A DNA stretch of 32,000 nucleotides from Pasteurella multocida (GCF_900187275.1 NZ_LT906458.1:60001-92000); one strand, 5' to 3'. Counted from the first letter of the stretch, positions 5,018 through 20,005 are shown. The notes: generated by a model not told the origin, from the letters alone. Program-made: numbers and translations.

Positions 5018-8000
5018 ATGTTACAAATTTTTCGTGGTTCTCCCGCACTTTCTGAATTTCGTTTAAATCAACTTGCTGTGCGTTTTCAAAAAGCCAATCT
5101 TCCCGTGAGCGCGTGTTATGCGGAATATATTCATTTTGCTGACTTATCTGAACCCTTAACAGAAGATGAAAGCGCAAAATTAGACCAACTATTACACTAT
5201 GGTCCCACTCTTGCGGAGCATGATCCTGTTGGTCACTGTTTTATCGTGATTCCGCGTATTGGCACTATTTCATCTTGGTCATCTAAAGCAACCGATATTG
5301 CGCACAACTGTGGCTTAAACAAAGTGAATCGTTTAGAGCGTGGATTAGCATTTTATTTTGAATTTGACCGCATGTTATTGTCTGAAGAGCAACAACGCTT
5401 GGTTTCACACATTCATGACCGAATGTTAGAAGGCATCATTCATACCCCTGAAGAAGCCAAAGTGCTGTTCGACCAACAAGCACCAAAACCATTTACTACT
5501 GTTGATATTTTGAGCGGTGGGCGTCAAGCGTTAGAAAATGCAAACGTGGAATTAGGTCTGGCGCTCGCAGAAGATGAAATTGATTATTTAGTCGAAAATT
5601 TCACCGCACTAGGTCGCAACCCAAATGACATCGAACTGTATATGTTCGCACAGGCAAACTCTGAACACTGCCGTCATAAAATTTTTAATGCGGATTGGAT
5701 CATTGATGGCGAAAAACAAGAAAAATCCTTGTTTAAAATGATTAAAAATACCTTTGAGAAAACCCCAGATCACGTACTTTCAGCCTATAAAGATAACGCG
5801 GCGGTGATGGAAGGTTCAAAAGTGGGACGATTCTTCCCGGATCAAGATGGGCAATATCGCTATCACAATGAAGATGCGCATATCTTAATGAAAGTGGAAA
5901 CTCACAACCACCCAACTGCGATTTCGCCCTTCCCAGGCGCGGCAACCGGTTCTGGTGGTGAGATCCGTGATGAGGGCGCAACCGGTCGTGGTGCGAAACC
6001 AAAAGCCGGTTTAGTGGGCTTCTCGGTGTCTAACTTAGTGATTCCAGGTTTTGAACAACCTTGGGAAAATCCAGTGTCGAAACCTAATCGTATTGCTTCA
6101 GCACTCGATATTATGATCGAAGGACCTTTAGGCGGTGCAGCATTTAACAATGAATTTGGTCGCCCAGCGTTATTAGGTTATTTCCGTACTTATGAAGAAA
6201 AAGTCAATAGCTTTGCGGGTGAAGAAGTACGTGGTTACCATAAACCGATCATGTTAGCGGGTGGGATTGGCAATATCCGTGCAGAACATGTACAAAAAGG
6301 CGAAATTCCTGTCGGGGCAAAACTGATTGTATTAGGTGGACCTGCCATGAACATCGGTTTAGGCGGTGGAGCAGCTTCTTCTATGGCTTCGGGTAAATCA
6401 AAAGAAGATTTAGATTTTGCCTCGGTACAACGGGATAACCCAGAAATGGAACGTCGTTGCCAAGAAGTGATCGACCGTTGCTGGCAGTTAGGTGAGGACA
6501 ACCCAATTCTCTTTATTCACGATGTGGGGGCAGGTGGTTTATCCAATGCGATGCCAGAACTCGTACATGATGGCGGTCGTGGCGGGAAATTTGAACTACG
6601 CAAGATCTTAAGTGATGAGCGTGGTATGAGCCCATTAGAAATTTGGTGTAACGAATCGCAAGAACGTTATGTGTTAGCAGTTGCGCCAGAAAAACTCGAA
6701 TTATTTACCGCACTTTGTGAACGTGAACGTGCGCCCTTTGCGGTGATTGGTGAAGCCACCGAGCAAAAGCATTTAACCTTACACGATGATCATTTCGACA
6801 ATAACCCAATCGATTTACCGATGAACGTGTTGTTGGGTAAAACGCCAAAAATGACCCGTGATGTGAAATCAAAAACGGTAGAAGGTAGCGCTTTAGATCA
6901 CTCTCAAATTGACTTAAAAGAAGCGTTTCACCGTGTGTTACGCTTACCTGTGGTGGCAGAAAAAACCTTCTTAATTACCATTGGTGACCGTTCTGTGACC
7001 GGTATGGTGGCACGGGATCAAATGGTCGGTCCATGGCAAATTCCTGTGGCAGACTGTGCAGTCACTACAGCAAGTTTAGACAGCTATCACGGTGAAGCCA
7101 TGTCAATGGGTGAACGTGCGCCTGTGGCATTATTAGATTTTGCCGCGTCTGCGCGTTTAGCGGTAGCAGAATCGATTACCAATATCGCAGCAACGAACAT
7201 TGGTGATATTAAACGTATTAAATTATCAGCGAACTGGATGTCAGCAGCAGGTCACGAAGGCGAAGATGCAGGCTTATATCAAGCGGTGAAAGCCGTCGGT
7301 GAAGAGCTTTGTCCACAACTTGGCTTAACTATTCCTGTGGGCAAGGACTCCATGTCAATGAAAACCACGTGGCACGAAAACGGTGAACAAAAAACCGTGA
7401 CGGCGCCATTATCTTTAGTGATTAGTGCTTTTGCACGTGTGGAAGATGTACGCAAAACAGTCACGCCACAATTACGCACCGACAAAGGACACAGTCGCTT
7501 ATTATTAATTGACTTAGGCGAAGGCAAAAATCGCTTAGGTGCGACCGCACTTGCGCAAGTGTATAAACAACTTGGTGATAAACCTGCGGATGTGGTGAAC
7601 GTTGAAAACTTGAAAAACTTCTTTAATGCCATGCAAGCCTTGGTAGCAGAGCAAAAACTCTTAGCTTACCACGACCGTTCAGACGGCGGTTTAATTGCCA
7701 CCCTTGCCGAAATGGCGTTTGCGGGTAACTGTGGTTTATCGATCCATATCAGTGCATTAGGCGATAACGATCTTGCCGTGTTATTCAATGAAGAATTAGG
7801 CGCGGTGATTCAAGTGCGTGAGAGCGATTTAAGCTATGTACGTGATGTGTTATCACAACATGGTTTAATCCATTTAACCAAAGAGTTAGGGGAAGTGACC
7901 ACAGAAGATCGTATCGAAATTTCTCGTGGTACCAAATTATTATTCAGCCAAAAACGTTCTGAATTGCGTGGTATTTGGGCGGAATTAACCCATCAAATGC

Positions 8001-8911
8001 AACGTTTACGTGATAACCCAGAATGTGCAGACCAAGAGTTTGAAGCGAAGAAAGATCCAGAAAACAAAGGCTTCTCCGCCCATTTAACCTACGACATTAA
8101 CGAAGATATCGCCGCACCTTACATTGCGACAGGTAAAAAACCGCGCATTGCGATTTTACGTGAACAAGGAGTTAACAGCCATTACGAAATGGCAGCGGCC
8201 TTTGACCGTGCGGGCTTTGAAGCGATTGACGTACATATGAGCGATTTACACAACGCTCGCCACCACTTAAAAGACTTCAATGCGTTGGTAGCCTGTGGTG
8301 GTTTCTCTTATGGGGACGTGCTTGGCGCGGGTGGCGGTTGGGCGAAATCGATCTTATTTAACCCAATGTTGCGTGAACAGTTTAGCGAGTTCTTTGCTAA
8401 TCCAAACACTCTTACTTTAGGGGTGTGTAACGGTTGCCAAATGGTTTCTAACCTTGCTGAAATTATCCCAGGTACAGAAGCTTGGCCACGTTTCGTGCGT
8501 AATAAATCAGAGCGTTTCGAAGCGCGTGCTGCATTAGTGCGTATTAATGAGACAAATTCACTTTGGTTCCAAAGCATGGCGGGTTCACATATGCCAATTG
8601 CGGTGTCGCATGGTGAAGGTCAGGTGGAGTTTAAACATCCTGAACAACTTGCTAACTTACAAGCACAAAACTTAGTTATCGCTCAATATATTGATAACAA
8701 CCTCAAACCAACAGAGGTGTACCCTGCTAACCCGAACGGCTCAGTATTAGGTATTACCGCCATCGGTAATGCTGACGGACGTGTCGCCATCATGATGCCA
8801 CACCCAGAACGTGTATTTCGCACGGTTTCTAACTCATGGCACCCAGAAGATTGGAGTGAAGATGGGGCTTGGATGAGATTGTTTAGAAATGCACGTGTTA
8901 GTTTGAAATAG
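5018..8911 (+). CDS. purL: Phosphoribosylformylglycinamidine synthase (large single-chain form)
   Basis: The 1297-aa product has FGAM-synthase N-terminal and AIR-synthase-like repeats and a C-terminal class I glutamine amidotransferase domain ([13 protein letters not shown]). Confidence 0.97.
6707..6715 (-). repeat. Uptake signal sequence core (ACCGCACTT)
   Basis: Perfect 9-mer inside purL. Confidence 0.8.
7544..7552 (-). repeat. Uptake signal sequence core (ACCGCACTT)
   Basis: Perfect 9-mer inside purL. Confidence 0.8.
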
Positions 8912-8960
8912 TTGTGAATGGGTTTGCCAAGCTATAATAACTCTTGTTATTCGACTTAAT

Positions 8961-9300
8961 AGCACTCGTGTTTTCATGAGTGCTTTTTTATATTGAATTA
9001 AGTGAAAATCTTCATGGTAGATGAGAGTTATCTTTGAAGATGCGTGGAGTTTAAAAATAATGATGTGTCTCACAGTTAAAATAATAAGGTCTTGTCATAT
9101 ATCAATATATAGATGAGAATTTATTTCTGATAGTTAAAGTACTTATCCTATCTTAATGGACTTTTAGAAGGAATCAGGGTACTTTCCTATAAAGATAGAT
9201 GTGTTGCTATTATGATGCGCGTTTACTAACTCATGACCCTTGAGTATTAGGGGATGTTTTTTTACTTAGTTATTAATTTAACTTTTACTAAGAATAGTTT
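8961..9300 (+). repeat. Copy A of the receptor-gene upstream module (hairpin + promoter/dyad + leader), truncated before the start codon
   Basis: By-eye alignment to 13289-13700. Examples: CTTGTCATATATCAATATATAGATGAGAATTTA (9091-9123) vs CTTGTCATTGATCGATATATAGACAATAATTTA (13458-13490); AGATGAG and TCTTT blocks at about 9019-9035; TTATTAA..ACTTTT near 9270-9290. The right boundary is approximate. Confidence 0.6.
8962..8989 (+). terminator. purL terminator hairpin (copy A of the repeated GCRCTCGTG hairpin)
   Basis: GCACTCGTG (8962-8970), loop TTTT, CATGAGTGC (8975-8983), then TTTTTT. The same hairpin recurs at 13289 and 16182. Confidence 0.8.
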
Positions 9301-9344
9301 GGTTGATAAGATTAGTTAAATTATTACTACGCTAAAAAGTATAT

Positions 9345-9917
9345 TTATGTATAGGCTTTTTTTATTTCATCACATAAAAAACAATAGTATTGTAGAGCGG
9401 ATTTATATAATTCAAACACTGAATCCATATCTCTATTGTATTCGGCAAACTTAACTCCTTTATGAGTTATTTGATTTCTTTCATTTCCTAATGTGATGAA
9501 ATCATTCTCACCTTTTTTGAGGTCATCCTCACGCTCTATTTTATTTCTAATTTCTTTTTTAAAATCTTCACCAAATAAACTATAAAAAGTATTGCAGTTT
9601 TTGTGGGTAGTTGATTGTTCCCATTTGAATAGGGTGTGATACTTTCTAGATAGTGCTTGTTTACTAAGAAAATTATGTAATATAGAATTATCTTTTTCTG
9701 AAAATACACTCGGTATAAATTTAGTCAAATGTCTTTCAAATGAGTTTGCTGATGAAATTAATAATATTCTTCTTGATATATCATTATATTCACTCAGAAG
9801 TGTGGTTAAATAGTAATTTTCATGTAATAGTTTGTTTAGCTCTTTAATATTCTCTTTATAATCATCATAAATTTTATTAATTGCGTTAAACTCTTCGCTA
9901 TCTAGAATTTTGAGCAT
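9345..9917 (-). CDS. Small all-alpha HEPN-like protein (190 aa) with an Rx4H motif; putative RNase effector
   Basis: LGNERNQITHKG contains R147-x4-H152 (nt 9462-9479) near the C-terminal helices, as in HEPN families (RNxxxH). The gene starts 13 nt downstream of the DUF262 gene, with GAGGTAAT in the spacer, and is very AT-rich. Confidence 0.6.
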   Translation of the reverse strand: MLKILDSEEFNAINKIYDDYKENIKELNKLLHENYYLTTLLSEYNDISRRILLISSANSFERHLTKFIPSVFSEKDNSILHNFLSKQALSRKYHTLFKWEQSTTHKNCNTFYSLFGEDFKKEIRNKIEREDDLKKGENDFITLGNERNQITHKGVKFAEYNRDMDSVFELYKSALQYYCFLCDEIKKAYT

Positions 9918-9930
9918 AAAATATTACCTC

Positions 9931-11169
9931 TTAATTTTTAAAGTTATATTTATTGTAAGCAATCTTCAGTCTTTTGATAACATTTGTCTTGGAACTTGTT
10001 TTTCCTGTGGAAGCATCTTTGAAATTTTGGTCTTCTTTTAATTCTTCAATAAATCTTCTATTTATTTGAATTAGATTAATATTCTTTTCGTCCCAAGCTT
10101 TTCTACAACAACCAAAAAACACGGATTCCAAAAATGTAATGCTGAGTTTAGGGTTTTCTGTGGAAAAACTTATTAGTGGACCAGTGATTTCAGAACATTT
10201 ACATTCAATCATGAATTTATCCCAGATTTCTTTCAGTAAGGAAATTTCTTCATCTTTTAAGTTTTTAGCTGAGTTAGCTATATTATTTAGAAACCCTATC
10301 ATTGAGTTTTGATATTCTATTTTTTCATTTTTATTCTTATCTAGAGCGCTATTATATCCTGCTAGTAGCATTCCAAATAGTCTTAAAATTAACTCTATAT
10401 CTTTTAATCTCAAATCCTCTTGGGATTTTGATAGTAGATTTTCTCTCCAGATAGTATTCTTATTCATTTCAATTAATTCTTTTAAAAACTTTGAATGGTA
10501 TAGTGACATTCTTATTTCTTGATTATTTAAATTAACCCCGCCACTATTTAATCTATTGAAAATTTCGAACATAGATTGTACGTTATCCTCACTATCAGTA
10601 GATGGTTTTATAATCATATTTCTGATTGTGGCCAAGTCTAATGTTGTTTTATCTTCAAATTCTAAAGTTTCATAATTTTTATCATGAAATCTATTTTTCT
10701 GAGGATTGTTTTTAGAGTCTAGTTTTAAAGAAAAATTGCTAAATAATTTATTGTTAGATAATAAACTCTTGCTTATAAATTCTCCCGTTTTGGCGCTTTC
10801 TCTTATTTTTAATCTAGCATCAGTTTTAGGAAATTTCCCTTTTACGAAAAAATATAAAGACATAAGTCTTTGTTGGCCATCTATAACAAAAAATTCATTT
10901 CTAGATTTTTCATATAAAAACATCTGTGGAATTGGTAGACCTATAAGAAGTGATTCAATTAACTTTGATGCTTTATTTATATCCCATACATAATTTCTCT
11001 GAAAATCAGGTATCTTAAATACACCAGCATCTAAAAATGATATAATCGTGGATATATTGAAGTCGTTTGGAGTTGTAGTTAATTTAAAAGTCTCAGATGG
11101 GTATAAACTAATTTCATCATCGCAATCATCACTTACTAGGTTTATTTCTTGAATATCTGTATTAGCCAT
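9931..11169 (-). CDS. DUF262 (ParB-like / GmrSD N-terminal type NTPase) domain protein, 412 aa, with an unassigned C-terminal half
   Basis: DUF262 hallmarks are IPDFQRNYVW (aa 53-62, nt 10984-11013), IDGQQR (aa 96-101; DGQQR = nt 10867-10881) and FEIFNRLNSGGVNLNNQE (aa 201-218). I recognise no DUF1524/HNH-type His motif in the C-terminal ~180 aa. Confidence 0.8.
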   Translation of the reverse strand: MANTDIQEINLVSDDCDDEISLYPSETFKLTTTPNDFNISTIISFLDAGVFKIPDFQRNYVWDINKASKLIESLLIGLPIPQMFLYEKSRNEFFVIDGQQRLMSLYFFVKGKFPKTDARLKIRESAKTGEFISKSLLSNNKLFSNFSLKLDSKNNPQKNRFHDKNYETLEFEDKTTLDLATIRNMIIKPSTDSEDNVQSMFEIFNRLNSGGVNLNNQEIRMSLYHSKFLKELIEMNKNTIWRENLLSKSQEDLRLKDIELILRLFGMLLAGYNSALDKNKNEKIEYQNSMIGFLNNIANSAKNLKDEEISLLKEIWDKFMIECKCSEITGPLISFSTENPKLSITFLESVFFGCCRKAWDEKNINLIQINRRFIEELKEDQNFKDASTGKTSSKTNVIKRLKIAYNKYNFKN

Positions 11170-11289
11170 AAATGTCTCTTAATTGTAGTTATTAAAATTA
11201 AATAGAATCTTATCACATTAAAGCAATTTGTTTATTGGTAAAGTCAAATAATGTGAGTTTGATCAAAATATTATCTCTTGTGATGCCTC

Positions 11290-11872
11290 CCTACTATGTT
11301 GTCCCTACGAATGCTTTTTCATATCTTACTCAGTTAAATCCCCTTCTCAGACAGTCTTGTTTTTAAAAAATCTATCACACTTTTATCATTAAAAAGAGTA
11401 GATATTTAGTGATAATTTACGCAATAAAAAAGTTTTGTTATTTATCGATATAGACAATAATTCACTGCTAACTTCAATGTACATTGAGATGTAATATAGT
11501 CAGTTTTGGTGAGATACAGTTTAGTTAAGATGGGAGGAGGCAGAGCTCCACAGTGTGAGCGTGTATGCTGGGGAGGAGCTCATCCATGGCATTCAGAAAA
11601 TTAGTGTGAAGATTAAGCTTGGATATGCATTTATATAACTACAAGCGTTTATTAACTTTTGAAGTTATATGCTTATTTATGAATAAATTTCGTATTTATC
11701 ACTTTGTGTTATTTTGGGACTTTATAGCCAAATACCCATTACACAAAATAATTTAACTAATACAAGCAATCATATTGAACTTGACACGATACATGTTGAT
11801 GCACTTGCTAAGAACAGACAGGGTACTCCTTCTATGATGCTAGTTTTTTCACAATTATCTTTTCATCTCTAG
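11290..11872 (+). repeat. Copy B of the receptor-gene upstream module (degenerate hairpin 3' arm + promoter/dyad + leader + first ~55 codons)
   Basis: Aligned blocks against copy C: CTACGAATGCTTTTTCAT (11305-) vs CTCATGAGTGCTTTTTCAT (13300-); GTGATAATTTACGCA vs ATGATAATTTACGCA; TATCGATATAGACAATAATT vs GATCGATATATAGACAATAATT. The coding part aligns without gaps apart from a 1-nt deletion. Confidence 0.75.
11679..11872 (+). pseudogene. Frameshifted, truncated 5' fragment of a ZnuD-like TonB-dependent receptor paralogue
   Basis: ATG 11679 followed by AATAAATTTCG has one A fewer than ATGAGAAAAATTTCG at 13713. The frame homologous to the receptor (..LCVILGLYSQIPITQNNLTNTSNHIELDTIHVDAL..) therefore lacks a start, and the ATG frame stops after 25 codons. 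Homology fades by about 11850. Confidence 0.75.
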
Positions 11873-11970
11873 TCTAGTTAATGTACTCGTCAAAAATGAG
11901 TCTTCTTCTCTGAATACTCTTCACAAACCACAACATTAGTCCCCTATATCAATAAAGTATTCCAGACATA

Positions 11971-12060
11971 ACCGTTTTTTTAATCAATACTACCGTATAA
12001 TAAACAAGCTATTTTCACTGTAATTAGGATTATTTTTATGAGAAAACGTCAGTACTTCAA
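11971..12060 (+). repeat. Possible fourth short fragment (B') of the leader 3' end and start codon
   Basis: CCGTTTTTTTAATCAATAC vs GCGTATTTTTAGTAATAC (13659-), and TTTTTATGAGAAAAC..GTACTT vs TTTTTATGAGAAAAA..GTACTT (13708-). The middle part is not alignable. Confidence 0.4.
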
Positions 12061-12161
12061 ATCGCTAGGCGTTGTTCTTTGGAGGAATTCTTGTGATCCC
12101 ATGACTGATTATGTTGATGTACATTTGTAAGGAAAGTATGCTAGAAATTTCTGTAAATTTG

Positions 12162-12170
12162 ACCGCACTT
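12162..12170 (-). repeat. Uptake signal sequence core (ACCGCACTT)
   Basis: Perfect 9-mer with an AT-rich flank, 17 nt upstream of the orphan ORF's start. Confidence 0.8.
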
Positions 12171-12186
12171 TTTGACGGAGAACAAA

Positions 12187-13212
12187 ATGACGTTAATTGA
12201 AAAGCTAAAAAAGATTGAAGACTATGTTTTACAACATTGCCAATATCGTTTTTATTTCGCCAAATCACTATTTGGTATGGCGTTAAGGGCACAATATTAT
12301 TATTACCCTGAAGATATTTCAGAAGCGACGAAAAATTTGGCTAATCATTTTTTAACGCAAGCAGGCTATGAAGATTTTTATACGCCGCTTGAAGCGCTGA
12401 TGAGCAAAGCGAATATCACGCCACCTAGTCCTGCGGAGATGATTGAGGGAGGAAATTGGCGATTTTTTGCGATTAAATTCAATTTTTTTTCTCCGCTAAA
12501 TCCAGCATTGAAAAAATACTATAATACAGAATATGTCACTTTTATTTGCATACCTTGCCAAGATCATGAAGGTCAGGATAGTATGGAATTGCTTTATACC
12601 TCACCGACAACGGGCAATCTGTTTAAAGAAATGGGCAATAGCCAATTACTTGATCCAAACTGTGAAGTTGATCAAGCTTATCTTCAATTACTTGAAGAAG
12701 CTGTCGATTTTATGTGCGAAAAATTAGATATTGATGCACCAGAACCAACTGACATTACAGAAGCGTTGCATGACTTCACTACTTTATTAAATATTCATGA
12801 TAAAGAGGAATTTATAAAACGTTATCAACAAATTCAAGAGGCGCCTGAAAAATGCTTACTGGATTTAGTAGAACAAGGCTATGCAGAGGAAGACGATAAA
12901 CCTGAATTGGCATTTTTGAGTTATCGTTTTTTATTGCAACCAATGTTAGATTCATTTGATACGGATTGGGGCATTGATAATGAAGAATTAAGCGAATATT
13001 TATCAAACATCATTGGCAAGAAATTCAAATTGCCCCAAAAAGCCCTCGAACCTTATGAAATTGTCGAACGCTTAGAGAAAAAGAGCGACTATACTTTGTT
13101 AAATATTGAAACAGAACAAGATTCATACAGTTTATTTGTCTGTAAACAAAAAGATAAAAAACGTATTTTACAGCTAGCAAGAATGTTAGATTTTGCTATT
13201 GTTCCTTTTTAA
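12187..13212 (+). CDS. Hypothetical acidic cytoplasmic protein (341 aa from ATG 12187), no family recognised
   Basis: A long ORF with GGAG 6 nt upstream of ATG 12187, which I prefer to the track's TTG 12172. It has no TM segment or signal peptide and is rich in D/E. USS cores lie at 12162 and 13274, and a terminator hairpin at 13289. Confidence 0.65.
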
Positions 13213-13273
13213 ATAGAAAGAGAGTGATAAACGTCATCTTATTTTTCATATGTTAAAAAGTTGGCTCAAAATG

Positions 13274-13282
13274 ACCGCACTT
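13274..13282 (-). repeat. Uptake signal sequence core (ACCGCACTT)
   Basis: Perfect 9-mer between the orphan ORF's stop and hairpin C. Confidence 0.8.
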
Positions 13283-13288
13283 ACGCTG

Positions 13289-13315
13289 GCACTCGTGTTC
13301 TCATGAGTGCTTTTT
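13289..13315 (+). terminator. Terminator hairpin, copy C of the repeated GCRCTCGTG hairpin
   Basis: GCACTCGTG (13289-13297), loop TTCT, CATGAGTGC (13302-13310, one G-U pair), then TTTTT. Confidence 0.75.
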
Positions 13316-13458
13316 CATTTTCTCAAGTTAAAGCACCTGTCCCAGATGAGCACTGTCTTTAGGCTGCAGATGAGCGCTGCCGTTAAAAACCTATCAGCCT
13401 TTCTATCGTTAAAAAAAGAGTAAATATCATCATGATAATTTACGCAGTAAAAAAAGAC

Positions 13459-13487
13459 TTGTCATTGATCGATATATAGACAATAAT
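13459..13487 (+). promoter_or_regulatory. Putative sigma70 promoter of the receptor gene, overlapping a conserved dyad
   Basis: TTGTCA (13459-13464), a 17-bp spacer and AATAAT (13482-13487). The spacer contains the TTGTC-N15-GACAA inverted repeat with a central ATCGAT. The same layout occurs in copy A (TTGTCA 9092-9097 / GAGAAT 9115-9120). In copy B the spacer is only 15 bp. Confidence 0.4.
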
Positions 13488-13712
13488 TTAGCGCTAATTT
13501 AAATGTACCGCATAGCTTAACCGAGTCAGCTTTAGGTATCGCGCACGATCCTATTACAACGGACAAGTCGTTATTAGGATGCCACACCTAGCGCGTGTAT
13601 TCCGTACAGTCAGTTACTTATAGCATCTTGCAGACTGACGCAAAGACAGGGCTTGAATGCGTATTTTTAGTAATACATGCCTTTATTAACTTTAAAAATT
13701 AATATGTTTTTT

Positions 13713-16106
13713 ATGAGAAAAATTTCGTACTTATCATTGTGTGTTATTTCGGCACTTTATAACCAACTGGCAGTTGCTCAAAGCCCACTAAAAAATACAA
13801 CTGAGCATATTGAACTTGAACCGATCTTTGTAAATACGCTGATTGAGAGCAGAGAAGGTGCGCCACTTAGCGGGCGTTTAATGGCAAGTGAAAAAATTAT
13901 TCCAGCGTATAGCCTTAAACAACGCGGGAGTAATCTTGGTGATGCGTTATCGAGTGAGCTGGGTATTCATGCTAGTCAATTTGGTGGTGGGGCGTCTGCG
14001 CCAGTGATCCGTGGACAAGAAGGTAAGCGGATTAAAGTGCTGAGCAGTGGTAATGAAACCTTGGATATGTCTGCTATGTCGCCTGATCATGCTGTGGCAG
14101 TGGATAGTCTATTAGCTAAAAAAGTTGAAATTTTACGTGGTGCAAATACCTTGTTGTATAGTTCAGGCAATGCGGCAGGTGTAGTCAATGTGGTTGATAA
14201 TAAAATTCCTACCGCCGAGGTTGTCGGAGTTGAGGGCGAAGTCGGCTTAAGAACGGGCAGTGCGGACAATGAACGTCTGGTGAATGTGGCATTAGATGTG
14301 GGATTATCAAAACATTTTGCGTTACACCTTGAAGGTTTGCACAAAAAAGCCGGTGATTATCGCACACCTTCTTATCAGTATCAGGGGAGCACGCATCATA
14401 AATTGGCAAATAGCTTTGTGGATAATCGAAGTGGCAGTGTTGGACTTTCTTGGGTGGGTGATAAAGGTTATTTAGGTGTTGCGTATAGCCAACGTAAAGA
14501 CAAATATGGGTTACCTGCGCATTCACATCTCTACGATGAATATTATATGCATGTTTTATTATCCGATGTACATTGGCGTAAGCCCTATCTAAAACATTAT
14601 CCATTTTTAATGGAAGAAACTGACATTGATTATAATAATCCCGGTATTGATTGTATAAAAAAAGAGTGGCATAGCCATGGGCATCTGTGTAATCACGGTC
14701 ATGCTCATCACGGAAATGGGCAACATAGTCACGATCATCACGCGCATGCCGATCCGCATATTGCGTTAAATACGCAACGTTGGGATTTGCGTGGCGAATG
14801 GAAAAATCCAGTAAAAGGCTTAGATAAAGTCCGTTTTTCGATTGCCAAAGTTGGTTATCGCCACGATGAAAAATCAGGGGCGATCTCAGACAATTCATTT
14901 AAAAATAAAGGCTATTCAGCACGTGTTGAATTCCTCCATCAGCCGATTGCGGGCGTCAGTGGGTTAATTGGTTTAAGTCATGTATATCAAGATAGCTATG
15001 CGTTAGATAATCATACACTTGAATATCGTAAACAAAATCTCCTTTCTGATCATACTACGGCTCAGCAAAGCCTCTTTTTAATGGAGCATGTTGAATTAGG
15101 TAAATGGCAATTTGATATTGGTTGGCGTGTGGAAAAACAACGCATTGCGATGAAATATCATTTTAATGTGCCAAAAGATGAGCGGCCACCGGAAGAACTG
15201 ACTCGACCACATAAATCGAAAGCCTATTCTTATGCTTTATCGGCAAATTATCAATTAAATGAACGACATCAGTTTAATATGATTGTTTCGCATCAAGAAC
15301 GTTTGCCAAATGCGCAAGAGCTATATGCGCATGGAAAACATTTAGCCACCAATTCTTTTGAAGCGGGAAATAAAAATCTGACAAAAGAACGCTCGAATAA
15401 TGTCGAATTAGGTTGGGGGTATACAGGGGAAAAATTAGGGATCAAATTAAGTGGCTACTATCAACAGTTTTCTAACTATATTTATGCCGCCATTTTAAAT
15501 AACAAAACAAGCTGTCCGTGGCGACCTAATTCCCGTTGTTTACGTTCATTAAGCGATGATTATCCATTACGCTTATATCGCTACAATCAAGCGAAAGCAA
15601 AGATTTATGGGCTGGAAGCTGAAGTGAGCTATCAAATTTCCTCAACACACAGTGTGTCCGTTTTTGGTGATTACGTGCGGGGTAAGTTAAAAGACCTTCC
15701 GTCTCTCCCGATTGGATATAAATATATCTATAACGAAAATTATGACATGGTTGGTGTACAACCAACGGGCTGGGAAAAACAACCTGATGGTAATGCACCT
15801 CGTATGTCACCAATGCGTTTAGGCATAAAATGGAATGCGTATTTTGACAACGGCATAAGTTTCAATACGCAGCTTTATCGAGTCTTTGCACAAAACAAAG
15901 TGGCACGACTAGAAACACCAACGAAGGGGCATACCATGTTGAATCTTGGCATGAGTTATGATGGTAAGATGGGCAATAATGAGTATACCTTATTTGCCAA
16001 TGTGAATAATGTGCTAAATAGTAGAGTCTATAATCATACTTCGTTCTTATCCTATATTCCGCAAAGTGGTCTAGGTCTTAATGTGGGAATGAATTTTAAA
16101 TTCTAA
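13713..16106 (+). CDS. znuD: TonB-dependent outer-membrane receptor, ZnuD-like, with a His-rich surface loop
   Basis: A signal peptide (..LAVAQ), a TonB-box-like ELEPIFV, a plug (GGGASAPVIRGQ) and a C-terminal ..NFKF. Blocks GLPAHSH.YD, HQERLPNAQELYAHGKH.ATN.FE.GNK.L.KERSNN.EL and YRVFAQNK.AR.ET match my recollection of Neisseria ZnuD. There are 13 His in 30 residues at nt 14670-14759. ATG 13704 is an alternative start. Confidence 0.8.
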   Translation: MRKISYLSLCVISALYNQLAVAQSPLKNTTEHIELEPIFVNTLIESREGAPLSGRLMASEKIIPAYSLKQRGSNLGDALSSELGIHASQFGGGASAPVIRGQEGKRIKVLSSGNETLDMSAMSPDHAVAVDSLLAKKVEILRGANTLLYSSGNAAGVVNVVDNKIPTAEVVGVEGEVGLRTGSADNERLVNVALDVGLSKHFALHLEGLHKKAGDYRTPSYQYQGSTHHKLANSFVDNRSGSVGLSWVGDKGYLGVAYSQRKDKYGLPAHSHLYDEYYMHVLLSDVHWRKPYLKHYPFLMEETDIDYNNPGIDCIKKEWHSHGHLCNHGHAHHGNGQHSHDHHAHADPHIALNTQRWDLRGEWKNPVKGLDKVRFSIAKVGYRHDEKSGAISDNSFKNKGYSARVEFLHQPIAGVSGLIGLSHVYQDSYALDNHTLEYRKQNLLSDHTTAQQSLFLMEHVELGKWQFDIGWRVEKQRIAMKYHFNVPKDERPPEELTRPHKSKAYSYALSANYQLNERHQFNMIVSHQERLPNAQELYAHGKHLATNSFEAGNKNLTKERSNNVELGWGYTGEKLGIKLSGYYQQFSNYIYAAILNNKTSCPWRPNSRCLRSLSDDYPLRLYRYNQAKAKIYGLEAEVSYQISSTHSVSVFGDYVRGKLKDLPSLPIGYKYIYNENYDMVGVQPTGWEKQPDGNAPRMSPMRLGIKWNAYFDNGISFNTQLYRVFAQNKVARLETPTKGHTMLNLGMSYDGKMGNNEYTLFANVNNVLNSRVYNHTSFLSYIPQSGLGLNVGMNFKF

Positions 16107-16181
16107 GGATGAATACGTAAATAAATCGTCTTACTGTAGAGATGTCAAAAACATCGTTTAATTTTAACTAATCTTTCCATG

Positions 16182-16209
16182 GCGCTCGTGTTCCCACGAG
16201 CGCTTTTTT
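16182..16209 (+). terminator. Receptor-gene terminator, copy D of the repeated hairpin
   Basis: GCGCTCGTG (16182-16190), loop TTCC, CACGAGCGC (16195-16203), then TTTTTT. Relative to copies A and C both arms changed together (A->G, T->C). A tail motif CAGGCGAGCGCT lies at 16230-16241. Confidence 0.8.
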
Positions 16210-16251
16210 CAGCATTTAAGCGCTGGTCACAGGCGAGCGCTTTCTCATTTT

Positions 16252-16989
16252 TTAAACCCGAAAGAAAATCCCACTTTCATCTTTTTTCTGCAAAATTTGC
16301 CAGCGGTAGACCGCACTTAAGCGTTCGCTTTGCATCACATCTTCTACCTTACCTTGAGCGATAATTTGACCTTGTTGCATTAAAATAATGTGGTCGGCGT
16401 AACTGGCAGCGAGATCTAAATCATGTAATACCATGACGGCATTAAATTGGGTCTTATGCTGTTTTAAAAATTGCATAAGACTTTGTTGGTGACGAATATC
16501 CAAGTGATTACAAGGTTCATCTAATAAAATCACAGGCGCATTTTGCATTAACGCACGTACGATATTGGCGCGTTGCTGTTCACCACCGGAAAGTTGATTG
16601 ATCCGTTTATGGCGTAAATGACTGAGTTCAAATTGATCTAATAATAGTGATAAATGTTGTTGATTCACTTTTCTGGCGGAGAAAAGAGTTGGGTTGAATT
16701 GTCCTAATTTGACATATTCTTCCACACTTAACGGCATACCATAGCGCCCATTTTGTGCCACAAAGGCTAATTTTCCTGCTCTGATTTGTTCTTGCACGGG
16801 GTGTCCGTTGAGGGTGACCTGTGCATTAAAATAGCCTAATAAGGCACGCAATAAGGTGGATTTGCCTGCGCCATTCGGACCAATAATCGCGGTATGTTTG
16901 CCCTGTGGAATGGTTAACTGATCAGTTTGTAAAATTACCCGCTCATTTGCCTTTAGGGATAAGGGGTGTAATTCAAAGAGTGCTTGCAT
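16252..16989 (-). CDS. ABC transporter ATP-binding protein, iron/heme-chelate (FecE/HmuV) type
   Basis: Walker A GPNGAGKST, signature LSGGEQQR, Walker B ILLDEP. It is the last gene of a three-gene minus-strand operon with 11-12 nt gaps between genes. Confidence 0.9.
   Translation of the reverse strand: MQALFELHPLSLKANERVILQTDQLTIPQGKHTAIIGPNGAGKSTLLRALLGYFNAQVTLNGHPVQEQIRAGKLAFVAQNGRYGMPLSVEEYVKLGQFNPTLFSARKVNQQHLSLLLDQFELSHLRHKRINQLSGGEQQRANIVRALMQNAPVILLDEPCNHLDIRHQQSLMQFLKQHKTQFNAVMVLHDLDLAASYADHIILMQQGQIIAQGKVEDVMQSERLSAVYRWQILQKKDESGIFFRV
16310..16318 (-). repeat. Uptake signal sequence core (ACCGCACTT)
   Basis: Perfect 9-mer inside the 3' end of the ABC ATPase gene. Confidence 0.8.
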
Positions 16990-17000
16990 ACAACGGTTCC

Positions 17001-17945
17001 TTACACTTTACGTTGTGTTGACTGGATAAAGATCCAGAAGAAGAAAGGACCACCAAGTAAGGCAATCACAATGCCCACAGGCAGATCAATGGGATAAGTG
17101 ATAAGACGAGAAGCACTATCCACCGCTAATAAAAATACAGCACCCACCCAAGCGGATAATAAAATCAGTTTACGGCGATGCCCGCCGATGACAGTTGTTA
17201 AAATATTCGGGATCATCATGCCTAAAAAACCAATAATACCAGATAAAGAAACAGCAGCACCGGTTAATAAAGCGGCTGCAATGACAGTTTGTAAGCGGAG
17301 TTTGGATACGGATATACCCATGGTAAAGGCGGTATCTTCACCAAGCATCAAGCAATCAAGCTGGCGACCTAAAATAGCCATCCAAACTAAGCCAATCAAC
17401 ATAATGGCGAAAGGGTAGTAAATAGGGGTAAAGCCGGCTTCTGATAAGCTACCAGCTAACCAAATGGTGGCGCTGCGTAGTACAAGATCATCGGATAAAA
17501 ATAGGATAAGCCCTACCACAGCGGAACAAAAGGCACTGAGGATAAACCCCATGATTAACAAACCCAACGTACCGCCCCCGAATACGTGATGAGCGAATAA
17601 TATCACTAAGCAAACTACTAACGCACCGACAAAGGCGGCAAGAGGTACGCCAATGCCAAGGCTTCCAAATGCCAGTACACAAATGACGCCTAACGCGGCA
17701 CCGCCAGAGGTGCCAATCAAACTGGGATCGGCTAAGGGATTTTCAAATAAGGCTTGCAGCCCGGCACCCGCTGCCGCGAGTGCTGCGCCAACGAGTAAGG
17801 CATTGAGAATACGAGGAATGCGGATATCAAAAACGATGGGAGCAAGGGCGTTTGGTGGCTGCCAACCACCAAAGCCCACGCCAGTTGAAAACCAAATCAG
17901 TAATACGGTTCCCAATATGGCCAAAAAGACAGACAGTTTTTTCAT
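17001..17945 (-). CDS. ABC transporter permease, FecCD/BtuC/HmuU family
   Basis: A 314-aa polytopic protein with Gly/Ala-rich helices typical of type II importer permeases (..IGFLGMMIPNI.. region). Confidence 0.9.
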   Translation of the reverse strand: MKKLSVFLAILGTVLLIWFSTGVGFGGWQPPNALAPIVFDIRIPRILNALLVGAALAAAGAGLQALFENPLADPSLIGTSGGAALGVICVLAFGSLGIGVPLAAFVGALVVCLVILFAHHVFGGGTLGLLIMGFILSAFCSAVVGLILFLSDDLVLRSATIWLAGSLSEAGFTPIYYPFAIMLIGLVWMAILGRQLDCLMLGEDTAFTMGISVSKLRLQTVIAAALLTGAAVSLSGIIGFLGMMIPNILTTVIGGHRRKLILLSAWVGAVFLLAVDSASRLITYPIDLPVGIVIALLGGPFFFWIFIQSTQRKV

Positions 17946-17957
17946 TCGGAATGCAGA

Positions 17958-18746
17958 TTACTTCGCTAAATCATGTAAACGTTTTAACACTTCAGGGGTG
18001 TTTAATCCATAACGTAAGTAATCATTAGCAGACCAGAAATAAATATGACCTGATTTTGCCGCTGGGCTATTGGCAATTTCAGGGCGTTCTAATAATTTTT
18101 CTACTCCACCAATCACTTCTTTTTGGTGTTCTGCCACAATAATGACATCTGGTTGTGCCACTAACCAGGCTTCGCGATTAAGTGGCTTAATCCCTTCTAC
18201 ATCTACTGCTGCGTTTACCCCACCTGCGCGACGAATTAATTCATCTGCTGCAGTATGTTTGCCTGCCACTACGCGACCATCATAGGTTAATAAATAACGT
18301 TTGCCTGTGCTTGGTAATGCTTGAATACCGGCTTCCCATTGGCTTGCCACTTGGTTTGCTTTGTCTTGCTTACCGATTAATTGACCCACTTCACGAATCG
18401 CTTTACCAAAGGCATCAATATGATCTTCGGGTAAAACATTGACAGCCTTTACACCAAGTTGCGTCAGATTATCGAAAATCGTTGCAGGCATTGCCATATA
18501 AGAACCTAAGACTAAATCCGGCTTGCTTTGCACAATCGGCTCAACAGCGAGTTTACGATGAATACCAATCACGGCGACTTTTTCTAAGGCAGGGTTCATC
18601 GTAGTTTGATCACGTCCCACAATCTTATCTTGAGCGTCTAATGCCACCACAATGTCAGCCACATCAGGCGTCAAAGTAACAATTTTTTGTGCATAGGCAA
18701 ACGGGGTTAACGCAGATAAAAACAGAAGCGTAAGAAGTTTTTTCAT
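17958..18746 (-). CDS. Periplasmic substrate-binding protein, cluster A-2 (HmuT/FhuD/BtuF-like), 262 aa from ATG 18746
   Basis: Signal peptide MKKLLTLLFLSALTPFAYAQ, then KIVTLTPDVADIVVALDA..IVGRD and PDLVLGS, typical of heme/siderophore binding proteins. AGGA lies 7 nt upstream of ATG 18746. Confidence 0.85.
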   Translation of the reverse strand: MKKLLTLLFLSALTPFAYAQKIVTLTPDVADIVVALDAQDKIVGRDQTTMNPALEKVAVIGIHRKLAVEPIVQSKPDLVLGSYMAMPATIFDNLTQLGVKAVNVLPEDHIDAFGKAIREVGQLIGKQDKANQVASQWEAGIQALPSTGKRYLLTYDGRVVAGKHTAADELIRRAGGVNAAVDVEGIKPLNREAWLVAQPDVIIVAEHQKEVIGGVEKLLERPEIANSPAAKSGHIYFWSANDYLRYGLNTPEVLKRLHDLAK

Positions 18747-18868
18747 AATCATGTCCTATAATATGAGTTTGACTGTTAATTTCAGTGTGTATTTGGTTTC
18801 GCCAGCGATCCGTCAGTCATGACGAGAGTAGGATTGACTCTATCTGAGCGATGTGCATAAACTTCGCC

Positions 18869-18908
18869 ATTCTATACTGTTAACAAAATAATAACAATTA
18901 TCATTATA
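18869..18908 (-). promoter_or_regulatory. Fur box overlapping the promoter of the ABC importer operon
   Basis: On the minus strand, TATAATGATAATTGTTATT (18908-18890) matches the 19-bp Fur consensus GATAATGATAATCATTATC at 15/19 positions (hand count). It overlaps TTGTTA (18897-18892), which is followed by a 17-bp spacer and TAGAAT (18874-18869). Confidence 0.7.
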
Positions 18909-19053
18909 AAATTATCTTGTTTTTTCCTTGTGATTATTTGAGGAAAAACGCAATAAAATAGGGGAAAATAAGGCGATAGAACACAAATGAAATGGCGGTG
19001 ATAAGAGCGTAAAAATAGCCAAACAAGGCTGTTTGGCTATATTGTTTAAGGGA

Positions 19054-19608
19054 TTATTTTTGTTGGTATTGCTGTTTTAGTTTTTCTTTTTGTGTTTCCA
19101 TTTCAGCATGTAACTTATCCATTTCATTCAATTTTGCTTCAAGCGAAGCCAAATCTTTTTGCGCTTTTTCAAGTGGATTTGCCGTTGCTTTGACCACGAG
19201 TTCAAGCATATCTATTGCTACACTATGTGCTGCTTTCGTTTTTTCAGCTAAGAGTAATACATCAGCATCTTTCAGCTGTAATCCATCGAGTTCTGCACTG
19301 CTTGTCTGTATTTGAGTCCGTAAATTTGATATTAATGTGTTAATTTCTTCTGGAGATAATTGTTTACCACTTTCTATTTGTGCGACTTTTTGCTGTAAAC
19401 CATCGACTTCTTTATTCATTCTCTGATCGGTCGTGCTTTGCCATGTTTCAAAGGCTTCATAATCTTTGCGGAATTGCTCTTGTGGGGAGAGGGTGATTTC
19501 TGCTTTGGGGGCGGGCTCGGTCGTTTTTGGCGTGTTGCTGGCATTATCACAGGCGATAAGGCTTAAAGCAAAACAGGTAACTAAGCTAAGTTGTGTGATT
19601 TTTTTCAT
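19054..19608 (-). CDS. Lipoprotein, coiled-coil-rich, unknown function
   Basis: A signal peptide with lipobox LIAC (Cys20). The remainder is Q/E/K-rich and helical. Confidence 0.75.
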   Translation of the reverse strand: MKKITQLSLVTCFALSLIACDNASNTPKTTEPAPKAEITLSPQEQFRKDYEAFETWQSTTDQRMNKEVDGLQQKVAQIESGKQLSPEEINTLISNLRTQIQTSSAELDGLQLKDADVLLLAEKTKAAHSVAIDMLELVVKATANPLEKAQKDLASLEAKLNEMDKLHAEMETQKEKLKQQYQQK

Positions 19609-19996
19609 CTTGATTTCCTTTTTGAAACGGCAATTGTTGTTTGATTTGTCGTTGCTTGAATTGATTATAAAATATCAAATTATGTTTTAGTAGTGCTTTT
19701 TTCAAAAAGCAAAAGAGGTTACCTGTTTATGATTAAATCAGAGAAGCGATGCTTTCAGCTTATTAAGCATTCTGTATATAAGATACTTCATGCTGTCTTT
19801 TATCACATGCTGTTGTTCATCTCTTTACGCTTAGGAAAGTGCCAGTCACAATACGCTCTTTTGTGTAAACAAAATGATAAACAACGCTTTTTACGGCGAG
19901 CAAGGTAGTTTGAGTTTGCGATTGTGGCATTAGCATAATACATATGCCTGAGTGCGCTGATCGTGTTTAAGTTGAAAAGAAAATTGATAAAAACGG

Positions 19997-20005
19997 ACCG
20001 CACTT
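19997..20005 (-). repeat. Uptake signal sequence core (ACCGCACTT)
   Basis: Perfect 9-mer, intergenic, followed by TTTT. Confidence 0.8.

Follow-up and report, generated by a model that had tools for sequence, protein, structure and literature searches.

Gene Content of the Interval Downstream of purL

The analyzed window is a 32,000-nt stretch of the Pasteurella multocida genome; coordinates are counted from its first nucleotide, and features lie on the plus strand unless stated otherwise. The left core flank of the interval is purL, encoding FGAM synthase (5018–8911; Pfam and allele comparison), followed by two minus-strand ORFs encoding a HEPN_RiboL-PSP-like partner protein of 190 aa (9345–9917) and a DUF262/GmrSD_N protein of 412 aa (9931–11169; Pfam, 7 × 10−35). 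The 412-aa protein strongly matched the PADLOC profiles NsnA (1.7 × 10−52) and PD-T4-2_A (3.6 × 10−36) and is, judging from these matches, a predicted defense component of the NsnA/PD-T4-2_A type. The 190-aa partner had no direct match in Pfam, NCBIfam, or PADLOC (the latter at E ≤ 0.001) and was recognized by 61% identity to the partner protein of L096, which carries PF18735. PD-T4-2 and Menshen (NsnABC) are DUF262 defense systems without DUF1524 (PMC12065111; PMC9519451), and in Menshen NsnA is accompanied by an adjacent NsnB ABC-ATPase and an NsnC effector (PMC12065111), whereas neither was present beside the NsnA-like gene studied here, whose sole neighbor encodes the small HEPN-like protein. 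The same DUF262+HEPN pair was found in another genus directly 3′ of purL and convergent to it (84% amino acid identity for purL and 71.5% nucleotide identity for the cassette).

Further downstream were found the 5′ stump of a receptor gene (11679–11832; translation and alignment), the stump of a PM1083-family gene (12038–12130), a DUF7821/DUF6630 gene (12187–13212; Pfam and cross-strain comparison), and an intact gene encoding a TonB-dependent receptor (13713–16106; Pfam and NCBIfam). The score of this receptor against the ZnuD model NF038289 was 590 bits, short of the cut-off of 950, and it is designated ZnuD-like only. The PM1083-family stump carries an internal deletion and reads MRKRQYFKSLGVVL...CDPMTDYVDV, while the gene is intact in L087 (P. 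oralis), L093, L094, L103, and L106. A short fragment at 11971–12060 had tentatively been taken for a fourth copy of the repeat described below, and 11998–12057 did match 13668–13732 (71%, E = 0.005); this candidate was rejected, as the fragment is the start of the internally deleted PM1083-family gene. The DUF7821/DUF6630 gene, with uptake signal sequences (USS) on either side (12162–12170 and 13274–13282), was shared by the five P. multocida variants compared, P. oralis, and L093. Thus, what had been regarded as the orphan ORF of a second cassette is conserved backbone and not variable cargo.

Composition of the Repeated Modules

Gapped self-BLASTN, together with local alignments scored relative to 300 dinucleotide shuffles, revealed three diverged collinear copies of a module, namely, A (8961–9290), B (11290–11832), and C (13288–13712). 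Copies B (11366–11829) and C (13385–13864) were 66.6% identical over 482 nt (E = 1 × 10−51, z = 55), and copies A (9083–9218) and C (13450–13582) were 65% identical (E = 2 × 10−7, z = 10); the similarity of A to B was weak (z = 3.3), and control regions gave z between −1.5 and 0.9. The sequence-only reading had described repeats extending well beyond a hairpin, with best blocks about two-thirds identical, and had held them to be old and diverged and not a recent tandem duplication; on all three points it was accurate.

The unit itself proved not to be primarily the proposed receptor upstream module. Each module is a REP-type palindrome doublet joined to the pseudogenized last ~95 codons of purL (psi-purL), and in B and C a ZnuD-like receptor gene contributes its 5′ end as a third part. 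The segments previously read as leader and dyad are in every copy homologous to the last ~290 nt of purL, a relationship that had been missed, with alignment z-scores of 32.7, 12.9, and 5.1 for psi-purL C, B, and A, respectively. The psi-purL copies contain in-frame peptide remnants in register with purL and have a common 5′ edge corresponding to purL nt ~8611–8628. psi-purL A (9044–9290; alignment) is the most decayed copy; it reads LVIYQYIDENL and VAIMM and has a 12-nt exact run, GTGGAGTTTAAA, in common with purL 8624–8635. Its best match was the L103-type purL allele (116/180, E = 7 × 10−13), and with a best match of just this extent it is too decayed for donor assignment. psi-purL B (11396–11672; self-BLASTN, alignment, and shuffle test) reads IDIDNNSL and ERV..HPWHSEN.CED.AW, whereas psi-purL C (13418–13700; self-BLASTN and alignment), 65% identical to purL, reads LVIDRYIDNNL and VVIRMPHLARVFRTVS. 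The junction between the spacer and psi-purL is common to B and C by descent. It should be noted that chance similarity of AT-rich intergenic DNA, with which the A–B score and the match of the supposed fourth fragment to unrelated sequence would agree, is ruled out by the shuffle controls and can practically be disregarded, given the z-scores of B–C, A–C, and purL–C, the register of the peptide remnants, and the conservation of module C in other lineages.

As had been supposed, copy B reaches into the 5′ end of a receptor gene, although deletion of 1 nt immediately past the ATG puts the stump out of frame. The stump matched receptor P0123 of another lineage at 38/48 positions, versus 26/48 for the resident receptor, so that the suggested import of allelic DNA appears apt for copy B.

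REP Hairpins

Module A begins with a REP-type hairpin followed by a degenerate second REP with an AGATGAG block (8961–9035; pattern search and terminator score), and the hairpin (8961–8984) with its T-run is the purL terminator. Module B begins with a degenerate hairpin (11290–11335), and module C with a doublet (13288–13385) composed of a hairpin (13288–13311), a T-run, and a second, degenerate REP in which the AGATGAG block occurs twice. The cargo slot is bounded on the right by a degenerate doublet at 11836–11903 (hairpin 11883–11903), and a further REP copy separates the convergent genes for the receptor and the ABC transporter (16182–16203). The sequences 8962–9007 and 13289–13332 were 83% identical (33 nt at 91%), and a pattern search located the hairpin at positions 8962 and 13289 (0 chance matches expected); both hairpins (8961–8984 and 13288–13311) resemble intrinsic terminators (10-bp stems with 5 GC pairs and T-runs). 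All four REP copies counted in the window fell between 8962 and 16203.

These palindromes resemble REPIN/RAYT systems (PMC3116915, PMC3337134, PMC5581495) in also acting as terminators and in forming short doublets that, in a sister species, cluster around the gene of a Y1 transposase: at the same locus of P. oralis (L087), seven REPs, in doublets, lie around a Y1_Tnp gene. It might therefore be supposed that a Y1 transposase mobilized REP-bounded segments, including the receptor unit between the REPs at 13289 and 16182, and thereby created the duplications, and the confinement of the REPs to this interval and the REP doublets at the right border of the slot in all variants agree with this. 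Such capture is nevertheless quite improbable, since no Y1 transposase gene was found in the window or at any P. multocida variant locus, the psi-purL 5′ edge and the left edge of the repeat d-prime (see below) lack a REP, and the reported targets of RAYTs are REPINs and not kb-size cargo (PMC3116915, PMC3337134). The REPs of the window also differ from REPINs in being joined to a gene fragment.

Module C and the Receptor Gene

Module C is ancient and common to sister lineages: orthologous copies were present in L093 and L094, whereas the more distant orthologue in L095 was not preceded by one. For the ZnuD-like receptor gene it provides the working 5′ region. Within psi-purL C, the block 13450–13490 contains the promoter-like sequence TTGTCA-17-AATAAT, the strongest sigma-70-like candidate of the interval (the promoter scan as a whole was at chance level, with 25 matches found versus 25.9 expected), and psi-purL C also carries the conserved motif TGATAATTTACGC; a copy of the block is found in psi-purL B (11426–11482). 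A search for the Fur-box consensus was negative. The block was 93% conserved, compared with 39–79% for the flanking psi-purL, and therefore this purL-derived sequence probably serves as the promoter or operator of the receptor gene. Thus, of the previously proposed promoter with a dyad, the constraint on the block was borne out, while the sequence itself derives from a purL 3′ pseudogene.

The last 77 nt of the DUF7821 gene and 70 nt downstream (repeat d, 13136–13282) recur as a second DUF7821 3′ end (repeat d-prime, 19859–20005) at the distal edge of the receptor/ABC/PM1805 block, which is lacking in P. oralis. The two repeats are 79% identical, and both are 147 nt long and end on the same USS. 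This, together with the order purL 3′ end, d, psi-purL C, d-prime and the single-copy state in P. oralis, is the interleaved pattern to be expected if module C goes back to a single ancient tandem duplication, in which the segment between purL codon ~1203 and the USS beyond DUF7821 was copied and the two copies then underwent reciprocal losses. We consider this origin possible, though rather doubtful: a direct junction would be expected, whereas a REP doublet and spacer of ~129 nt separate d from psi-purL C; the receptor remnant is missing from the first copy in four of the five variants; and purL and psi-purL C are only 65% identical, well below the value for d and d-prime. The idea concerns the origin of module C alone and is compatible with the explanation preferred below.

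Variable Cargo and Exchange Tracts

Cross-strain comparison, in which 24 contigs were sampled per allele, revealed sites with a single module as well as sites with other cargo, which the sequence-only reading had predicted for a hotspot. The slot extends from the purL stop codon to the REP doublet upstream of PM1083–DUF7821, where homology to all the other cargo variants restarts. Five cargo types were found in P. multocida, namely, DUF262+HEPN (this window), Thoeris, a retron-type RT-Toprim system, PIN_8, and a 646-aa unknown protein, while the flanks were constant in these five variants and in P. oralis (purL on the left, the REP doublet–PM1083–DUF7821 backbone on the right). With five different cargo types in one slot, the interval 3′ of P. 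multocida purL is a genuine defense-gene hotspot with core genes on both sides. Other cargo was located immediately 3′ of purL in P. oralis, L088, L094, and L096. The slot is 1.3–2.9 kb in size, holds one system per strain, and has no tRNA or tmRNA flank; the cargo block (8914–11850) is foreign in composition, its GC content being 28.3% versus 39.7% in the window. Gene calls in the five P. multocida variants included no recombinase or integrase, and the search for a plasmid or phage counterpart of the cargo was negative. P. oralis and L088 carry a Y1 transposase at this locus, L088 together with a DDE transposase. The window contained 11 USS per 32 kb, with 0.15 expected.

Comparison of purL alleles revealed a sharply mosaic 3′ end. 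Codons ~1202–1252 (nt ~8618–8790) exist in at least three very divergent versions within P. multocida: relative to L100/L103, nucleotide identity was 69% in 8618–8717 and at least 99% across most of the gene, whereas relative to L089 the sequence was identical at 8576–8769 and then had 20 mismatches within the last 140 nt. The divergent patch of the window matched other genera at 52/59 positions and the Pasteurella consensus at 44/59; its start at codon ~1202 adjoins the psi-purL 5′ edge at nt 8624. In the single closely related pair in which the exchange tract was mapped, the segment swapped relative to the Thoeris strain extended from ~8770, inside purL, to ~11851–11960, in the REP/PM1083 region. 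Exchange tracts ending inside purL would account for the mosaic 3′ end.

The modules had been proposed to be active homology arms, recombination among which inserts, swaps, or deletes the bracketed cassettes. The copies do bracket the DUF262 cassette (A and B) and the segment with the stumps and DUF7821 (B and C), recombination between them would yield clean deletions, and the out-of-register origin of A and B suggested below would itself be a past event of this type. This model is nonetheless unlikely: the swapped tract takes in both A and B, no breakpoint was placed in a module copy, and module C stands alone in the other four cargo variants. RecA-type exchange generally requires ~20–30 nt of exact identity, whereas the longest exact run common to the copies, which are ~65% identical, is at most 15 nt, which makes them poor substrates for homologous recombination. 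Modules A and B lie inside the ~2.9-kb DUF262+HEPN cargo block, occur only alongside this cargo, and can no longer act as homology arms; the DUF262+HEPN variant has three psi-purL copies, against one in each of the other four. Rarer arrangements, including deletions between modules, could exist beyond the 24 contigs per allele.

Genomic islands at gene 3′ ends (tRNA, tmRNA, and guaA-type) duplicate the 3′ end of their target. The interval resembles them in having partial 3′ copies of the upstream gene beyond the inserted DNA with a common 5′ edge, and the coincidence of this edge with the start of the purL patch could reflect a site-specific process instead, with an att site near codon 1203, a replacement 3′ end brought in, and the old end displaced as psi-purL. 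Cargo located immediately 3′ of the purL stop in several genera would also fit. We regard such islands as very improbable, since no integrase gene was called in the five P. multocida variants, no att repeats surround each cargo, four of these variants lack an extra psi-purL, and plasmid or phage counterparts were not found; furthermore, the junction inherited in common by B and C means that the integrations were not independent, and the patch ends at ~8790, beyond which the purL tail is species-like again.

The best explanation, to which we assign a probability of about 0.7, is a core-flanked hotspot with exchange tracts ending in purL and in the REP–PM1083 region, in which the modules are relics and the cargo would turn over by natural transformation and RecA-type recombination. 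An incoming fragment composed of a purL 3′ end, cassette, REP, psi-purL, and receptor may have paired out of register, its purL end against a resident psi-purL, which would produce the extra modules; the DUF262+HEPN block would have entered this lineage later, with one illegitimate junction inside the receptor of copy B. Neither an intermediate of the type purL–REP–psi-purL–receptor without PM1083/DUF7821 nor a cassette followed by a full-length P0123-like receptor was found in the sample. In a distinctly unlikely extension of this explanation, psi-purL/REP modules act as decoy landing pads, with which an incoming purL end and cassette pair so that the cassette is added and not exchanged. If true, a transformable bacterium would stack defense cassettes without an integrase at a preferred breakpoint, purL codon ~1203, and the coincidence of the purL patch and the psi-purL edge would be explained.

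Relation to Known Hotspots and Significance

The purL-to-receptor interval is a well-documented case of an established type of hotspot, the core-gene-flanked hotspot or minimal mobile element, and requires no new mechanism. According to the definition given in PMC3082526, the minimal mobile elements of Neisseria (Saunders & Snyder 2002; Snyder et al. 2007) are likewise different whole-gene cassettes located by strain between two conserved genes; they are incorporated through homologous recombination, as the cargo may be here, and their host is naturally transformable and has uptake sequences. In contrast to them, the P. multocida cargo is mostly anti-phage, the 3′ end of the left flank is sharply mosaic, and one cargo block contains flank pseudogene copies and REP doublets. 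Core defense hotspots of P. aeruginosa (cDHS1/2, PMC10250203), E. coli (PMC10121019), and Acinetobacter (PMC11723918), for which transfer via conserved flanks has been proposed, are similar in their constant core flanks, variable defense cargo, low GC content, and absence of obvious mobile-element genes; however, the present slot is much smaller, belongs to a small Pasteurellaceae genome, lacks a tRNA/tmRNA flank, and bears scars of the flanking gene.

The modules are decayed relics, or scars, in a slot of varying anti-phage genes. purL offers a concrete case of probable recombinational cargo exchange scarring a housekeeping gene: it carries a patch of ~170 nt with ~30% divergence within the species, where identity over most of the gene is otherwise ~99%, and purL 3′ pseudogenes remain. 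One such pseudogene piece has apparently been recruited as the putative promoter/operator of a metal-uptake receptor gene, a clean and testable case of regulatory exaptation. P. multocida, a major veterinary pathogen, now has a precisely mapped anti-phage hotspot, and its five interchangeable cargoes, including Thoeris, a retron-type system, and the DUF262+HEPN pair, have a bearing on phage therapy and strain typing.

Gene content of the interval and the cassette

The genes prmA, dusB, fis and purL were followed by the interval under study, the gene of a ZnuD-like TonB receptor (NF038289, 590 bits, below the cut-off of 950), and the FecCD/ABC transporter, PM1805 and Exo_endo_phos genes; the purL protein fell into a 99% cluster named Pasteurella multocida. 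Cassette 1 consisted of two genes, encoding a DUF262 protein (PADLOC: NsnA, 1.7e-52; PD-T4-2_A, 3.6e-36) and a partner of 190 aa that shares 61% identity with a HEPN_RiboL-PSP protein. This cassette is not a Menshen system (PMC12065111), because NsnB and NsnC are missing from it; judged by its sequence, it is a predicted PD-T4-2-like system with a HEPN partner. The GC content of the cargo block was 28.3% versus 39.7% in the window. An ORF previously regarded as an orphan encodes a DUF7821/DUF6630 protein. In one P. multocida genome (locus L085, 7353–8983) the DUF262 gene was split (326 + 95 aa) and the HEPN partner was cut to 126 aa; the cassette is undergoing decay in some strains.

Repeat copies and their composition

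The sequence-only reading had described three to four diverged module copies, with the best blocks perhaps two-thirds or more identical, which bracketed the cassette and the second ORF. Three of them lie at 8961–9290 (A), 11290–11832 (B) and 13288–13712 (C). Repeat finding, gapped self-BLASTN and local alignment against 300 dinucleotide-preserving shuffles were applied to the interval. Module B (11366–11829) aligned with C (13385–13864) at 66.6% over 482 nt (E = 1e-51, z = 55), A (9083–9218) with C (13450–13582) at 65% (z = 10), and the hairpin regions (8962–9007 and 13289–13332) with each other at 83%; the similarity of A and B was weak (z = 3.3), and control regions gave z from −1.5 to 0.9. 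The hairpin pattern occurred exactly twice (0 chance matches expected), and both sites resembled intrinsic terminators. Thus, the three copies, their order and the identity estimate were correct. The extension of copy B into the 5′ end of a receptor gene is present, but its frame is shifted by a 1-nt deletion directly 3′ of the ATG. A tentative fourth copy (B′, near 11971–12060) was rejected, since window positions 12038–12130 encode MRKRQYFKSLGVVL...CDPMTDYVDV, the two termini of a protein of the PM1083 family; this is the remnant of a gene that is intact in sister loci. The observation of repeat copies is confirmed, and its interpretation as a recombination hotspot is partly supported.

In the self-alignment, the coding 3′ end of purL (8741–8893) matched module C (13526–13677, E = 1.6e-15), and purL 8798–8899 matched module B (11548–11649); in gapped alignment, homology to the module leaders covered purL ~8624–8911. 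The dyad CTTGTCAT..ATATATAGA noted earlier lies inside this homology and corresponds to purL codons. Peptides of purL stayed in register in the conceptual translations of the decayed copies (psi-purL), namely, LVIDRYIDNNL and VVIRMPHLARVFRTVS in C, LVIYQYIDENL and VAIMM in A, and IDIDNNSL and ERV..HPWHSEN.CED.AW in B (z against shuffles of 32.7, 5.1 and 12.9, respectively). The receptor ATG is located ~25 nt 3′ of the psi-purL pseudo-stop. The hairpin belongs to the palindrome family GCRCTCGTR-N-YACGAGTGC, of which seven copies surround a Y1 (IS200-like) transposase gene at the same locus of P. oralis and further copies occur in the window at 11883 (degenerate) and 16182; together with its ~50-nt tail containing AGATGAG blocks, it matches REP (palindromic repeat) doublets of the P. 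oralis type. The purL homology and this match indicate, at the level of sequence, that a module is composed of a REP doublet, a spacer and psi-purL, with or without a receptor 5′ end. The REP family fits the descriptions of REPIN/RAYT systems (PMC3116915, PMC3337134), with no RAYT in the P. multocida locus. In the gap separating the convergent genes of the receptor and the ABC transporter sits the REP copy 16182–16203 (see also P. oralis L087, 7034–7119), which probably serves as a bidirectional terminator. The sole Rfam match in the interval was a snoRNA at the chance level (E = 0.34).

Cargo variation and breakpoints

About 900 collection blocks (look-up index units) carried purL and the DUF7821 protein in identical form, and all of the 24–25 contigs read for each had the arrangement of the window. 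Other P. multocida purL alleles were followed in the same slot by four further cargoes, as had been anticipated for the purL–receptor interval: Thoeris (ThsA and two ThsB; L089), a retron-type RT-Toprim_I-C (L100), a 646-aa protein (L103) and PIN_8 (L106–108), the last two with an intact PM1083 gene. Directly after purL were also found PIN_8 and the Y1 transposase in P. oralis, ParA-like and RelA/SpoT genes in a lineage with 88% purL identity (L088), two ORFs with no assigned function in a sister lineage (L094), and, in another genus (L096, purL 84% aa), a homologous DUF262+HEPN pair convergent to purL, with 71.5% nt identity to the window cassette. Thus, defence cargo recurs in the slot that follows the purL stop. 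The 646-aa protein (L103, 14000–15940) and the pair of 144 and 185 aa in L094 (1216–2207) had no match in Pfam or PADLOC and are, by position, candidate new defence genes. The RT-Toprim_I-C of L100 (13931–15783) was called as two ORFs (254-aa RT and 363-aa Toprim), while the PADLOC models are single genes of ~550 aa, and it may be split or frameshifted. A genome-contig scan anchored on the purL C-terminus was dominated by universal purL matches and yielded two useful H. parainfluenzae loci, both without a downstream receptor. No vehicle of the cassette was found in plasmid and phage collections.

Relative to the Thoeris strain, purL was identical at 8576–8769 and had 20 differences in its last ~140 nt; homology was lost at the stop and returned at 11851, with divergent sequence to ~11960 and ~98% identity beyond. 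Consequently, the exchanged tract covers approximately 8770–11960, and both module A and module B, with the stump of the receptor, lie inside it. In comparison with L100, L103 and L106, homology resumed at 11913, and the right flank (REP doublet and PM1083 upstream region) was common to all variants. The window variant had three psi-purL copies; the other four variants and L094 had one each, module C, and P. oralis and L088 had none. The longest exact run common to any two module copies was 15 nt, and the mapped tract contains both A and B; the copies, which had been proposed as recombination arms, are passengers in the mapped exchanges and not their arms. In a P. multocida-like contig labelled "synthetic metagenome" (L109, 1–2156), the part of the DUF7821 gene that begins at window position 12251 was joined to a gene for a ModA-like periplasmic binding protein, which is another right-flank rearrangement.

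Mosaicism of purL and proposed origin of modules A and B

Other P. multocida purL alleles differed from that of the window by 26–40 residues, 13–20 of them in the last 100, with clustering at codons 1202–1252 (a patch of ~170 nt, window ~8618–8790). Between allele types, nucleotide identity was ~69% in 8618–8717 and ~80% in 8718–8817; most of the gene reached at least 99%, apart from some other 100-nt blocks of lower identity. At least three versions of the patch, ~30% divergent at the nucleotide level, exist within the species: a "consensus" common to P. canis and P. oralis, that of the window, which is closer to other genera (52/59 vs. 44/59), and that of the P0367 allele and L103. This pattern agrees with repeated import, the crossovers lying in conserved blocks of purL. 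A rival explanation is a site-specific process, its main support being that the patch start and the 5′ edge of psi-purL lie within ~20 nt of each other.

The receptor stump of module B matched the receptor of a sister lineage (L093, P0123) at 38/48 residues and the resident receptor at 26/48; module B was 71% identical to the L093 module and 67% to C. The distance from psi-purL A to the end of the HEPN gene was ~55 nt, and the true purL–HEPN spacing in L096 was 74 nt. The simplest origin of A and B would be an out-of-register route of three steps. A Pasteurella lineage with the order purL–REP–psi-purL–receptor would have met a fragment with the order purL 3′ end–cassette–REP–psi-purL–receptor, the purL end of which paired with the resident psi-purL and the right arm of which lay in the receptor. 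The product would have been A–cassette–B–receptor, and this block would later have entered the lineage of the window with an illegitimate junction at ~11832. Confidence in this route is low to moderate, because no intermediate was found among the genomes compared. The possibility that psi-purL A is simply the purL end of the cassette donor was unsupported: its REP-to-psi order is the same as in C, and no match between it and the purL end of L096 could be detected. Because of decay, comparison of the psi-purL copies with purL lineages gave no clear donor for any of them.

The receptor block with module C

The two sister lineages have orthologues (~80–83%) of module C plus the receptor, in the orders PM1083–DUF7821–module–receptor (L093) and purL–cargo–REP–PM1083–module–receptor (L094); psi-purL was absent upstream of a receptor orthologue that is more distant (L095, 74% aa). 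Block 13450–13490 in module C was 93% conserved in both orthologues, and the flanking psi-purL 39–79%. This block contains TTGTCA-17-AATAAT, the best sigma-70-like match of the interval (10/12), with a total number of matches equal to chance. We infer that the purL-derived segment now acts as the putative promoter/operator of the receptor. A metagenome scan with the conserved block returned one P. multocida-like contig. The purL-derived motif TGATAATTTACGC (13433–13447 and 11410–11424) was kept in both module B and module C as well as in L093, and in part, as TGATAATTCGC, in L094; it resembles half a Fur-type box, although the full Fur-box consensus had no match within three mismatches.

The block 13283–19858, absent from P. 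oralis, is flanked by a 147-nt direct repeat (d, 13136–13282; d′, 19859–20005) that comprises the DUF7821 3′ end and 70 nt. The interleaved order of purL 3′ end, d, psi-purL C and d′ is suggestive of a single old tandem duplication followed by losses, although a REP doublet and spacer of ~129 nt at the expected junction count against its simplest version. Both repeats end exactly on the uptake signal sequence (USS) ACCGCACTT (13274–13282 and 19997–20005). The USS AAGTGCGGT occurred 11 times in 32 kb (0.15 expected), with none in the cargo block 8914–11850; its abundance is in keeping with a Pasteurellaceae genome that is transformable. PM1805-family genes numbered one in the window (19054–19608), four tandem paralogues in L093 (4639–7446) and at least two in L094 (6617–7963); in L093 and L094 they directly follow the receptor, a position taken in P. 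multocida by the FecCD/ABC transporter.

Relation to known systems

An integrase-type island is not a fitting description of the locus, because no recombinase was called in the five P. multocida variants and att duplicates for each cargo are absent. The literature searches gave no earlier account of a hotspot linked to purL in P. multocida. The locus corresponds to a minimal mobile element as defined in PMC3082526 (citing Snyder 2007), with homologous recombination in the flanks as the probable route of incorporation. It is similar to core defence hotspots (PMC10250203, PMC10121019) and is a well-resolved further case of a known hotspot type.
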